From positions 1-54,934 of the forward strand of contig JAFTNY010000001.1 of the NCBI GenBank assembly GCA_017451625.1: a stretch of 54,934 nt of DNA, in the 5' to 3' direction. The notes under the pieces were generated by a model that saw only the letters and a program-made list of their open reading frames with translations, made no database searches and was not told the origin of the DNA. Position 1 is the first letter of the stretch. The number at the start of each line of letters is the position of its first letter. This document shows positions 18,992 to 50,285 of the stretch, in pieces. The stretch is from Alphaproteobacteria bacterium. GTDB taxonomy: Bacteria; Pseudomonadota; Alphaproteobacteria; Rs-D84. A program made the translations under genes and the position numbers.

Positions 18992-20094
18992 TGAAACCAA
19001 TTTTATTTAACCTTGCAGATGCGGAATTAACACAATATCTGGCCGATATGGGACAGCCGAAATTTCGGGCCAAGCAAATTCGCGAATGGTTGGATCGTGG
19101 CGCCCCAGACTTTGCATCTATGAAAAATATTCCAGATGCGTTGCGACGTGATTTAGATAATGTGGCACAAACACTGCCGGTGAAAATTGTAAAAAAACTG
19201 GAATCCGCAGATGGCGAAACAACCAAGTTCTTGTTAGAACTGAACGATGGCGAGCAGATTGAATGCGTACTGATGCGCACAACGTATGGCAACAGTGTTT
19301 GTGTCAGTTCACAGGCCGGTTGCGCAATGGGATGCAAGTTCTGTGCCAGTACACTGTTGGGATTAAAACGTAATTTAACAGCAAATGAAATCTTGGCACA
19401 GATTCTGGTGGCACAATGGGAACTGCGCAGCGACAGATTCAGCGACAAGCCAATTCGCCCAAATGGCGATGCGAACAATGGGGACGTGTCGCACATTGTA
19501 ATTATGGGAACCGGCGAACCGTTGCAGAACACAGAAAACGTTATTAACTTTATCGAACAGGCAAACAGCAAACTGGGGATTGGATGGCGAAGAATAACGG
19601 TGTCAACGTGTGGGATTGTTGATGGGATTGACAGACTGATTGAATGGGGGCGGCCAATTAATTTGGCGATTTCACTGCATGCACCAACAGATGAATTACG
19701 GTCCCAAATTATGCCGATTAACAATAAATATAAATTAAACGAAGTTTTGGACACAGCATGGCGTTTCACAGATTTACATAATCGTCAGTTGATGATTGAA
19801 TACATCTTGCTGGGGCGGCGTGATGCCAATGGCGAAACAATTTTGTACAACGCAACACCGGAATATGCGGAAAAGTTATCAGAACTGTTGGCGGGCAAGA
19901 ACTGTATGGTAAATCTGATTCCATGGAATGCGGTTGATGAACGCGACTTTGCATCGCCATCAGGTAATGCAGTACACAGATTTCAAGACATTTTGATAAA
20001 AAATGGAATACATACGCGGATTCGTCGCGAACGCGGGACAGATATTGGTTCTGCATGTGGGCAGTTGCGGCTGAATAACGCAAAAGGTAAATGA
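18988..20094 (+). CDS. rlmN: 23S rRNA (m2A2503)/tRNA methyltransferase RlmN
   Basis: CVSSQAGCAMGCKFC, MGTGEPL, ISLHAP and DIGSACGQL. Confidence 0.96.
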   Translation: MMKPILFNLADAELTQYLADMGQPKFRAKQIREWLDRGAPDFASMKNIPDALRRDLDNVAQTLPVKIVKKLESADGETTKFLLELNDGEQIECVLMRTTYGNSVCVSSQAGCAMGCKFCASTLLGLKRNLTANEILAQILVAQWELRSDRFSDKPIRPNGDANNGDVSHIVIMGTGEPLQNTENVINFIEQANSKLGIGWRRITVSTCGIVDGIDRLIEWGRPINLAISLHAPTDELRSQIMPINNKYKLNEVLDTAWRFTDLHNRQLMIEYILLGRRDANGETILYNATPEYAEKLSELLAGKNCMVNLIPWNAVDERDFASPSGNAVHRFQDILIKNGIHTRIRRERGTDIGSACGQLRLNNAKGK

Positions 20095-20843
20095 TGAAGT
20101 TAAAATATATTACATGTTCTGATCCGCGTGAAGATGTGTCTGTCAATGATATGATGCGACTGATGCGGTATGCGCCACAGGTTGAAATTGGTATTCAGGC
20201 ACACCCCAGCGCAATGTCAAATGGAATGCCACGAAACGCATGGTTTAAACATCTGATGACGTTGGTTTCAAATATCGATATGCCGATGAATGTCGCAGTG
20301 CATGTTAATTACCAATGGTGTGATATGCTGTGTGGTGGCGGAATGCCGGATGAATTGGACAAATGGTTCAAGATGACGCGATATGGCACACAAACACCCG
20401 CCATTCGTCGGTGGCAGCTGAATATCGGCGATGGGACGAAAAACTGGGACGCGAATGCGGTGGCAAAGTTAATTGCGGAACATCCACAAAATGAATTTAT
20501 ACTGCCATACAACGCAGGCGTTGCGCAAAAGATTGAACAACTGAATAAAACAGGGGCGCAGTTTTCATTGCTGTATGATTCTTCGTATGGTTATGGCATA
20601 ACCCCAGAAAAATGGGATGCGCCGGTGTATGACACACATCCGATGGGGTATGCAGGCGGATTGTCGCCAGAAAATGTGGCGACACAGTTGGCAAAAATCG
20701 CACAGCAGGTGCCAACAGATTACACAACGTGGATTGATGCCGAAGGACGGTTAATGCGCCCCAACACACGCCAATTTGATGTTACGCGTGCAATCAGTTA
20801 TGTTGAAAACGCCCTGTGTTGGACCGAAAATAAAACACGTTAA
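20091..20843 (+). CDS. TrpF-like TIM-barrel protein of unknown function
   Basis: LLYDSSYGYG...GYAGGLSPENV...WIDAEGRL resembles the phosphate-binding end of PRAI-like barrels; ATGA overlap with rlmN. Confidence 0.55.
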   Translation: MMKLKYITCSDPREDVSVNDMMRLMRYAPQVEIGIQAHPSAMSNGMPRNAWFKHLMTLVSNIDMPMNVAVHVNYQWCDMLCGGGMPDELDKWFKMTRYGTQTPAIRRWQLNIGDGTKNWDANAVAKLIAEHPQNEFILPYNAGVAQKIEQLNKTGAQFSLLYDSSYGYGITPEKWDAPVYDTHPMGYAGGLSPENVATQLAKIAQQVPTDYTTWIDAEGRLMRPNTRQFDVTRAISYVENALCWTENKTR

Positions 20844-20848
20844 GAATA

Positions 20849-20872
20849 AAAAATCCCCAGATGGGGATTTTT
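20849..20872. terminator. Bidirectional intrinsic terminator
   Basis: AAAAATCCCC-AGAT-GGGGATTTTT between convergent genes. Confidence 0.85.
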
Positions 20873-20873
20873 C

Positions 20874-48649: not shown

Positions 48650-49069
48650 ATGAAAATTAAAAACTTTGCTTTGTTGGCAGGCGTCGCGGGCTTGTTGGCG
48701 GCGTGTGGCGGTTCTTCGAAAATCGTAGAACCAGCAGACTTGAACGAACAGCGTGTATTCTTTGGTTTCAATTCTTCTGAAATTTCCGAAGAAGCAAAAA
48801 ACAACCTGTTGGGGCAGGCACTGTATATGAAAAATCACGAAGATGTAAAAATCCAAATCGCAGGTAATTGCGACGAACGTGGTTCAACAGAATACAACTT
48901 GGCATTGGGTGCACGTCGTGCAAACGCAGCCAAAGAAGTTTTGGTAAATGACGGTATCTGTGCAAAACGTATCTCGACCATTTCGTATGGTAAAGAACGT
49001 CCATTGGTTCAGGGTTCTGGCGAAGAAGTCTGGAAATGGAACCGTAATGCCACAACAACAGTTAAATAA
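48650..49069 (+). CDS. pal: Peptidoglycan-associated lipoprotein Pal
   Basis: Lipobox LAAC, GNCDERGSTEYNLALGARRA and TISYGKERP. Confidence 0.93.
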   Translation: MKIKNFALLAGVAGLLAACGGSSKIVEPADLNEQRVFFGFNSSEISEEAKNNLLGQALYMKNHEDVKIQIAGNCDERGSTEYNLALGARRANAAKEVLVNDGICAKRISTISYGKERPLVQGSGEEVWKWNRNATTTVK

Positions 49070-49089
49070 TAATTGTTGAAAACATATCA

Positions 49090-49117
49090 AAAACACCGGC
49101 AAATGCCGGTGTTTTTT
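49090..49117 (+). terminator. pal terminator (copy 1 of a 22-bp direct repeat)
   Basis: AAAACACCGGC-AAAT-GCCGGTGTTTTTT. Confidence 0.85.
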
Positions 49118-49187
49118 GTTTCTTGCACAAAAGAACATAATCATACATTATTGTTGACAAAATAAATCATTGTGTTATTTTGTACAT

Positions 49188-50285
49188 ATGTCGAAAATAC
49201 AAAACTATTTTAACAATCTGGCGAATCGGGTATTCCCAATTGGACAAATCGTCCAAAATTTGCCCTATGCGATGATATTCAAAACAACGCATTGGTGTCC
49301 CAATAAATGTCCGCACTGTTGTGAATCTGCGGGTGCACATATGCCAAAAACATTTATTCCCGCCGATGTAATTGAACAGTATATAAAACAGGCAAAAACC
49401 GATCCAAAATTCAGCCGAAAATTGGTCTTTACCGGTGGCGAGGTGATGAGCGCATATCAACATCATGACACGCGGTACGTGCCACAATTGTTGAATATGG
49501 CATTGGACAACGGATGTCAGGTTGATATAAAAACAAATGCGGGCTGGGCAATCGCAAAAAACACTATGCGCGAACAAATATTTAATGATTTGGTCGGCGT
49601 ATTATCTGCACACAGCACCAGTGCCTTTAGAATGACACCAATGCAAATATCACTGTCGCTGGATAGATTTCATCCACATGCGATGCAGAAAAACCTTGCC
49701 TTTATCACAGAAATGGCACAAAGACAACATAACAGCAGTTGCCTGATACATATTACATCTTTTGAGAAAGACGCAGATATGTTTACTGAACTGTTAAACA
49801 ATCTGACAACAAAGTATGACGTATATCAACTGGTGGCATTTGGCGGCGAAAACAATGGCAATATCAGCCAGACAATGTCGGATACCCTGTGGTCTGTAAA
49901 CGGGAATATTGTTTTAAAATTTTCGATTGGCACATTGTTTGATGGCGGACGCGCCAAAGATATTGACGGCGCATATCATACACCAGAACCACGCTTTGCG
50001 TTTATTTCGGGGCGACAGAATCCAATGCTGCTGATGGCATTTGACACATTTGGAAATGTTACACTGGGCGAAAATTCTGGTAAAAAAATAACAGTGCCAT
50101 GGCGCGACAATGACGACACCCCAAGACCGTTATCTGAAATTCGCAGGGATTTAGTAAAACAGACCAGAAAAACCGAGGTCCAGTATACAGCAGAAACGTT
50201 TGTTGTAGTTAACAAGGCGGTTTTCAAATCAATAAAACAGGACATCAATACAGCATTGGGACGCAGAGGAATAAAAAAACGATAA
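49188..50285 (+). CDS. Radical SAM protein of unknown function
   Basis: CPNKCPHC (CxxxCxxC), FTGGE, KTNAGW and ISLSLDRFH; own promoter TTGACA-16-TATTTT-6-ATG. Confidence 0.85.
   Translation: MSKIQNYFNNLANRVFPIGQIVQNLPYAMIFKTTHWCPNKCPHCCESAGAHMPKTFIPADVIEQYIKQAKTDPKFSRKLVFTGGEVMSAYQHHDTRYVPQLLNMALDNGCQVDIKTNAGWAIAKNTMREQIFNDLVGVLSAHSTSAFRMTPMQISLSLDRFHPHAMQKNLAFITEMAQRQHNSSCLIHITSFEKDADMFTELLNNLTTKYDVYQLVAFGGENNGNISQTMSDTLWSVNGNIVLKFSIGTLFDGGRAKDIDGAYHTPEPRFAFISGRQNPMLLMAFDTFGNVTLGENSGKKITVPWRDNDDTPRPLSEIRRDLVKQTRKTEVQYTAETFVVVNKAVFKSIKQDINTALGRRGIKKR

Follow-up and report, generated by a model that had tools for sequence, protein, structure and literature searches.

A short basic C-terminal tag on accessory proteins of Candidatus Enterousia and its possible link to type IV secretion

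Accessory proteins of Candidatus Enterousia (order Rs-D84, Alphaproteobacteria) carry a short C-terminal tag, K-[Q/T/S]-[R/K]-COOH, which we hold with very high confidence to be real, selected, lineage-specific and specific to this class of proteins. In its looser form the tag is basic-x-basic at the free C-terminus, often with Q or N before it. It marks roughly 7-8% of non-core proteins, about 20-25 per genome, in the dispensable and fast-evolving part of the proteome. A docking signal for VirD4, the coupling protein of a type IV secretion system (T4SS), is the leading explanation of the tag; the link is circumstantial, and we propose it tentatively. Rs-D84 has been described as a widespread, uncultured order of gut bacteria that have reduced genomes, are metabolically dependent, probably rely on a partner and encode many hypothetical envelope proteins, in a paper that mentions neither a T4SS nor effectors (PMC12306168).

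The tag was noticed in a stretch of 54,934 nucleotides (the window), corresponding to contig C3 of the assembly G000 (893 kb, 62 contigs, 93.8% complete). A first-pass annotation had listed five open reading frames (ORFs) with the tails ENKTR, ETKQRKK, TIKTR, NDKQR and GIKKR, and translation gave the same tails. It had also remarked that K-x-R ends are absent from the recognisable core proteins of the window; this was the case for all of about 45 such proteins, PyrG (20874-22499) ending in KARK. All five ORFs stand singly between housekeeping genes, P0002 and P0003 as a pair:

20091-20843, + strand: P0001, 250 aa, tail ENKTR; lineage-specific enzyme family with a predicted TIM barrel, between rlmN and pyrG
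28173-29159, - strand: P0002, 328 aa, tail ETKQRKK; predicted helical protein adjoining pal, between pal and bamB together with P0003
29217-29444, - strand: P0003, about 75 aa from the likely ATG at 29444 (the ORF is open from a TTG at 29519), tail TIKTR; single-pass membrane protein
38359-38721, - strand: P0004, 120 aa, tail NDKQR; between pnp and ybaB
49170-50285, + strand: P0005, 371 aa (probable ATG at 49188), tail GIKKR; radical-SAM-like enzyme, between an OmpA-like gene and parB

Enrichment at the C-terminus of accessory proteins

Genes were called with a simple home-made caller based on ORFs and codon scores, which gave 817 predicted proteins in G000. Since the stop codon fixes the C-terminus of an ORF, errors in start calling are harmless for statistics on tails. 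The proteome-wide analysis covers two Enterousia genomes, G000 and a complete congener in 2 contigs (G003), whose VirD4 is 78% identical to that of G000. The 613 reciprocal-best-hit pairs between the two were taken as core, and proteins without an orthologue in that single congener as accessory.

In G000, K-x-R ends were present in 26 proteins, against 11.4 expected from position-specific frequencies. For K-[QT]-R, 14 proteins were observed where 1.5 were expected, and the maximum among 20,000 column shuffles was 9; KQK ends were also in excess (n=7). Among ORFs not called as genes, the K-[QT]-R end occurred in 4/3402 (0.12%). The congener gave a comparable picture, with 8 K-[QT]-R ends against 1.06 expected, in addition to five KSR and five RTR ends. 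Counts of the K-Q-R-stop pattern set against its permuted orders (14 versus 3-6) were too noisy to serve as a scan of relatives.

We then compared the two classes of protein. The end [KR][QTS]R was found in 16/204 accessory and 4/613 core proteins of G000 (odds ratio (OR) 13, p = 2.6e-7), and in 17/245 accessory and 2/613 core proteins of G003 (OR 23, p = 3.5e-8), so that K-x-R-type ends are indeed commoner in ORFans than in core proteins. Terminal Arg by itself was more frequent in accessory (22%) than in core proteins (5%). The motif is tightly bound to its position: in the accessory proteins of both genomes, [KR][QTS]R was seen 33 times at offset 0, with counts of 0-2 for every offset from 1 to 11, and its rate at the C-terminus was about 100 times the internal rate. 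R endings climbed with divergence, from 3% in orthologues of more than 75% identity to 16% below 45% identity and 22% in proteins with no orthologue. Where slots of G000 are syntenic in G003, they hold unrelated small genes whose products also end in R (NKQKSR, TLNRTR, AEQRRR).

The same pipeline was applied to a genome of another Rs-D84 family (G040; 640 kb taken, GC 31%). Here only 3/256 accessory proteins ended in [KR][QTS]R, and the echo of the pattern was weak (R ends, 10.5% versus 3.7%; [KR][QTS][KR] ends, 9/256 versus 1/351). As the same procedure yields only this weak signal in G040, an artefact of the pipeline is excluded. Other C-terminal tripeptides that recur among accessory proteins of G000 are YTN (4), YSN (3-4) and CAS (4).

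Selection on the tail

Tails were kept across about 10 families whose members are 30-70% identical, and among orthologues of P0001, P0002, P0003 and P0004 as well as in four families encoded outside the window; only the P0005 family was mixed. The four outside families are as follows:

C8_4140 family: 9/9 tails end in R
HD-domain family: 12/12 tails end in R/K
C24_2948 family: 8/9 tails end in K/R
C35 family (small, Cys-rich): 14/15 tails end in K[TQ]R, the remaining one in TTR

The codon of the terminal Arg varies inside individual families (CGA, AGA, CGC, CGT or AGG), with switches between CGN and AGR codons. Because the codons switch while the residue is kept, the constraint acts on the amino acid. 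An origin in a DNA-level repeat, such as an integron attC site, a miniature inverted-repeat transposable element, a terminator or a mobile 3' cassette, was rejected on the same kind of evidence, the DNA downstream of the bearers being unrelated and the K, Q and R codons differing between them. The bearers are not one hidden paralogous family either, as an all-against-all BLAST of 34 of them gave a single pair.

We also considered whether any free tail of this lineage would drift to such an end. Among core pairs in which all of the last three residues differ (n=175), the tag was present in 1/350 tails, against 33/449 accessory tails (p = 1e-7), and the drift explanation was rejected. There is a genome-wide bias at the stop codon: in 50-56% of genes the codon before the stop has A at its third position, compared with 22-27% of background third positions (G000, G003), TAA is the stop of 53/58 tagged genes, and more than 50% of terminal Arg codons are the rare AGA or CGA, core genes included. 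This strong excess of A speaks for selection on stop context throughout the genome. Composition or an A-rich stop context alone was nevertheless rejected as the source of the tag, because it leaves Arg and the K at -3 unexplained and accessory genes are lower in GC.

The five tagged proteins of the window

The start codon of P0001 overlaps the stop codon of rlmN (ATGA, 20091-20094), so that a gene absent from the congener is coupled in translation to the housekeeping gene of an rRNA methyltransferase. P0001 had no Pfam match, and a profile search of its family against PDB sequences was also empty. Its AlphaFold model (pLDDT 94.4) is a TIM barrel, and the closest PDB folds are those of TrpF (PRAI), with TM-scores of 0.59/0.69 at 14% identity. 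The earlier label "TrpF-like" is accordingly fair as a description of the modelled fold; it is not a functional assignment. In this family, 112/120 homologue clusters end in K/R, with the consensus W-x-x-Q-[KNH]-[TQS]-[KR].

P0002 had neither a Pfam match nor a PDB structure match at E<0.001, and is predicted from its model (pLDDT 85.6, with the final 3 residues disordered) to have a new helical fold. All 25 homologues end in K, and K or R is present at -3 in 23/25. P0003 lies upstream of P0002, and the two form a gene pair beside pal that is kept in at least 4 other genomes. In a tblastn search, P0003 homologues adjoined P0002 homologues in 4 other genomes, with the tails NTKTK, YNKVR, NQKTR and TLKTR, and all five tails of the P0003 family end in K-[TV]-[RK]. 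Beside pal, G003 has only a small membrane gene resembling P0003, with the tail HNIKSR.

The slot of P0004 between pnp and ybaB is empty in the congener. Its 19 homologues all end in K/R (KQR, KQK, KER, QER and others), and K-x-[KR] was re-formed through indels, giving length variants of 118-120 aa. P0005 matched the Pfam family Radical_SAM with 30 bits, and a paralogue on another contig ends in TKAR. Tails of P0005 homologues include SKKR (three times), GIKIR and NWKTR, but also IFVK, IKSM and NYIER.

A scattered type IV secretion system

The window also encodes a VirD4-type coupling protein:

44301-46616, + strand: VirD4-type coupling protein, 771 aa; Pfam matches T4SS-DNA_transf (2.8e-48), TrwB_AAD_bind and TraG-D_C

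Its neighbours encode RsmE, a pseudouridine synthase, a tetratricopeptide repeat (TPR) protein and Skp, with no other vir gene nearby. The description of this gene as an orphan is thus apt in terms of position, as it stands isolated among RNA-modification and envelope genes. The first-pass annotation had asked for virB genes elsewhere in the genome, and these were found. On one other contig G000 encodes VirB10, VirB8 and a VirB9 with a SPOR domain, and on a third contig a 331-aa VirB11-like ATPase, indicating that a channel is present in the lineage. VirD4 is single-copy in 41/41 Rs-D84 genomes, and VirB4 (PF03135), a protein of about 810 aa, is encoded once per genome in 60/60 members of the order other than G000.

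In 31 genomes of the genus, no relaxase matched PF03432, PF08751 or PF03389 over the cut-off, other relaxase families not having been searched. Taking into account that VirD4 is conserved and that no relaxase was found with these three Pfam models, VirD4 most likely needs protein substrates. The T4SS is thus scattered, vertically inherited, relaxase-less on the three models and rvh-like, and presumably moves proteins.

Two neighbouring features were noted alongside this system. A 79-aa tagged protein (tail TSKQR) is encoded 30 bp downstream of the gene for the VirB11-like ATPase (G000 C20 1001-2266); in G003, the tagged 79-aa gene is not kept at the VirB11-like locus. The window further encodes two TPR-repeat proteins, the gene of one lying two genes away from virD4:

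41892-42959, - strand: TPR-repeat protein
52804-54471, + strand: TPR-repeat protein

TPR domains are well known for reading C-terminal peptides; to regard these two proteins as readers of the tag would be pure speculation.

Possible readers of the tag

If the T4SS is the reader, the VirB/VirD4 machinery would recruit the signal-less majority of tagged proteins through the tag as a docking signal, and VirD4 or an adaptor would recognize the free carboxylate together with the side chains at positions 0 and -2. In that case the tagged enzymes and the proteins of new fold would be effectors, together making up a repertoire that is passed to a partner cell. Dispersed, fast-evolving genes without an assigned function, with basic, Arg-containing C-termini, may by analogy be called effector-like. 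The proposal of the first-pass annotation that the tails are VirD4-substrate signals is borne out as far as enrichment, the presence of a channel and tail conservation are concerned; it is not borne out with respect to extended charge, which is lacking, export signals, which are not depleted, and a tagged family of lipoproteins. Tagged lipoproteins and exported proteins would be left unexplained by cytoplasmic docking, and would need a second, periplasmic entry or another use of the tail.

A number of observations weigh against a T4SS as the reader. Residues -20 to -4 had a mean charge of -0.10 (G000) or +1.2 (G003), neither value differing significantly from that of other accessory proteins; only Q was enriched in this segment (1.6-1.9 fold), and the constraint is limited to the last 3-4 residues. 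The motif is far weaker in the family of G040, where VirD4 and VirB4 are likewise present. VirB4 was not found in the G000 assembly with PF03135 or TIGR00929, which we read as a presumable assembly gap because the gene is universal in relatives. Some bearers resemble ordinary cytoplasmic enzymes (Tdk, AckA, and dCTP-deaminase-like, radical SAM and TIM-barrel proteins). N-terminal segments resembling signal peptides or transmembrane helices, called with a crude home-made heuristic, were present in 12/44 tagged accessory proteins against a background of about 30% and are thus not depleted. The absence of cleavable signal peptides, originally claimed for the five window ORFs, holds for these with the exception of P0003, a single-pass membrane protein, but does not extend to the whole class of bearers. 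A lipoprotein family of about 145 aa (lipoboxes LMASC, LFASC, VTSC and others) keeps x-Q-[RK] in 20/24 homologues and, its lipobox being canonical, the C-terminus of a tagged lipoprotein cannot meet VirD4 in the cytoplasm. Upstream of the tagged genes we found no shared promoter motif beyond a generic -35 element. Tagged genes were not clustered with vir genes, and effector-immunity pairs were not seen.

That the tag is kept on signal-less proteins as well as on a family of genuine lipoproteins, and that export signals are not depleted, would be accounted for by another lineage-specific reader that is independent of compartment, for instance one that is PDZ- or TPR-like or acts through beta-strand addition, or by a tag that acts only outside the cell on a partner or host. 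Sorting, surface display, vesicle loading and partner-cell binding are roles that might be served in this way. The i/i+2 pattern with a free carboxylate would fit the geometry typical of C-terminal peptide readers, and the partner dependence and envelope proteins described for Rs-D84 (PMC12306168) are also in line with it. However, no candidate reader was found, the TIM-barrel, HD and radical-SAM bearers show no export route besides the T4SS, and the explanation is less specific than a T4SS reader and offers no further prediction that can be tested on sequence. We judge it somewhat unlikely. It is also conceivable, but in our view quite improbable, that the tag has no dedicated reader, and serves young, poorly folded proteins as a protective or kinetic cap, for instance as an anti-degron against cytoplasmic and periplasmic proteases of non-polar C-termini, or provides a favoured context for the nascent chain or stop codon. 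The last residue is basic in about a third of the proteins of either class (core, 33%; accessory, 39%), and this general preference, the A-ended last codons, the smooth rise of R endings with divergence and the independence of the tag from compartment all agree with such a cap. So does the tmRNA tag, a normal non-polar ...AMAA, on account of which an altered ssrA degron was rejected. A cap does not explain why fully diverged core tails are nearly never tagged (the 1/350 versus 33/449 above), why Arg is taken over Lys at the last position, or why K is fixed at -3 and Q/T/S at -2, and from the lower GC of accessory genes one would expect Lys rather than Arg.

That the finding reflects chance, an artefact of gene calling or a repeat in the DNA is extremely improbable and effectively already refuted. 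The gene caller is crude and some bearers are short, low-scoring ORFs; on the other hand, no shuffle reached the observed count, uncalled ORFs gave 0.12%, flanks are unconserved and codons degenerate. The result was moreover replicated in a second genome; bearers have conserved homologues, and for two bearers the structure models are confident.

Comparison with known C-terminal signals

Published T4SS substrates have C-terminal, positively charged signals, according to the statement in PMC3937733 that cites Vergunst 2005. The Enterousia tag is similar in being C-terminal, basic and Arg-containing, on unrelated proteins of an alphaproteobacterium with VirD4. It differs from them in its exact position, its confinement to the last 3-4 residues, the absence of upstream charge and the presence of lipoproteins among its bearers, whereas the known signals are diffuse, span about 20-50 residues, are net positive and are not anchored to the last residue. 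The consensus of these known signals is R-X7-R-X-R-X-R. Examples are those of Agrobacterium VirE2, VirE3, VirF and VirD5 (Vergunst et al. 2005, PNAS 102:832, cited in PMC3937733).

The rvh T4SS shares with the system described here its scattered chromosomal islets, a reduced alphaproteobacterial genome and, as candidates in our case, dispersed single-gene effectors and a link between C-terminal tails and the coupling protein. Rs-D84 is another order, and the tagged families are not homologous to known rickettsial effectors. We know of no shared tripeptide described for rvh effectors. The C-terminal tails of the rvh effectors RalF and RARP-2 bind RvhD4 (PMC11077975, PMC4546372).

In form, the tag resembles peroxisomal targeting signal 1 (PTS1), as both are degenerate tripeptides at the free C-terminus of unrelated folded proteins. 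PTS1, SKL-COOH or [SAC]-[KRH]-[LM], is a eukaryotic peroxisomal signal read by the TPR domain of PEX5; it differs from the tag in its chemistry and in having a known receptor, and there is no homology between the two. To our knowledge, PTS1 has no bacterial counterpart, and no bacterial secretion or sorting signal has the form of a degenerate tripeptide at the free C-terminus, so that PTS1 is the nearest formal analogue. The Enterousia tag could be a minimal, PTS1-like tripeptide address of the T4SS, which would imply a second entry, from the periplasm, of tagged lipoproteins into an unusually decorated VirB9/VirB10 core; we consider this unlikely.

Effectors of the bacteria-killing T4SS of Xanthomonadales (X-Tfe) carry the XVIPCD, a VirD4-binding C-terminal domain of about 120 residues with a Gln-rich tail. 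This is a C-terminal label like the tag, but a domain rather than a tripeptide. The C-motif-2 of ClpX substrates (MuA-like; RRKKAI-like) is a short, basic, C-terminal degron, and differs from the tag in having no K-x-R end and in marking proteins for degradation instead of export.

T4SS substrates are hard to predict since their signals are diffuse. If the T4SS does read the tag, the tag would be the first T4SS signal that is discrete and can be defined by sequence, and an unusually compact variant of C-terminal signals. An effector repertoire of about 20-40 proteins per genome would become readable from sequence across an uncultured, partner-dependent gut order, and would give the first functional handle on how Rs-D84 and Enterousia interact with their partners. 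Should the reader be something else, the tag on unrelated families of cytoplasmic type and on lipoproteins still stands, and points to an undescribed system of C-terminus recognition.

Other tagged proteins

Most bearers belong to no Pfam family, the exceptions being radical SAM (P0005 and its paralogue), HD, DnaJ, DUF2817 and dCTP-deaminase-like proteins. Tdk ends in KQR in G000 and in KTK in G003. Acetate kinase AckA of G000 (C17 2903-4243) has a C-terminal extension, ...SQNQKQK, while its 80% identical orthologue in G003 (C2 99726-100967) is without the extension and ends in ...DYSFAK. A housekeeping enzyme has thus gained a tag-like tail.

PDC-S13, a phage-defence candidate in PADLOC, is matched (E = 5.8e-22) by a tagged protein of 301 aa that ends in EKIR (G000 C24 2948-3853). 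Anti-phage defence was rejected as an explanation of the whole class, as this is the only family that matches PADLOC.

In the C35 family (G000 C35 2527-2850; relatives in G019:C7, G015:C2 and G064:C4), proteins of about 105 aa end almost invariably in C-D-H-Y-K-[TQ]-R, with up to 3 paralogues per locus at 32-94% identity. This tail may belong to a metal-binding or structural motif. The x-Q-R/K lipoprotein family (about 145-170 aa) occurs in tandem arrays of 2-3 copies (G014:C5:20698-22572; G017:C3 and C7; G052:C3; G042:C18), which recall arrays of immunity or surface proteins.

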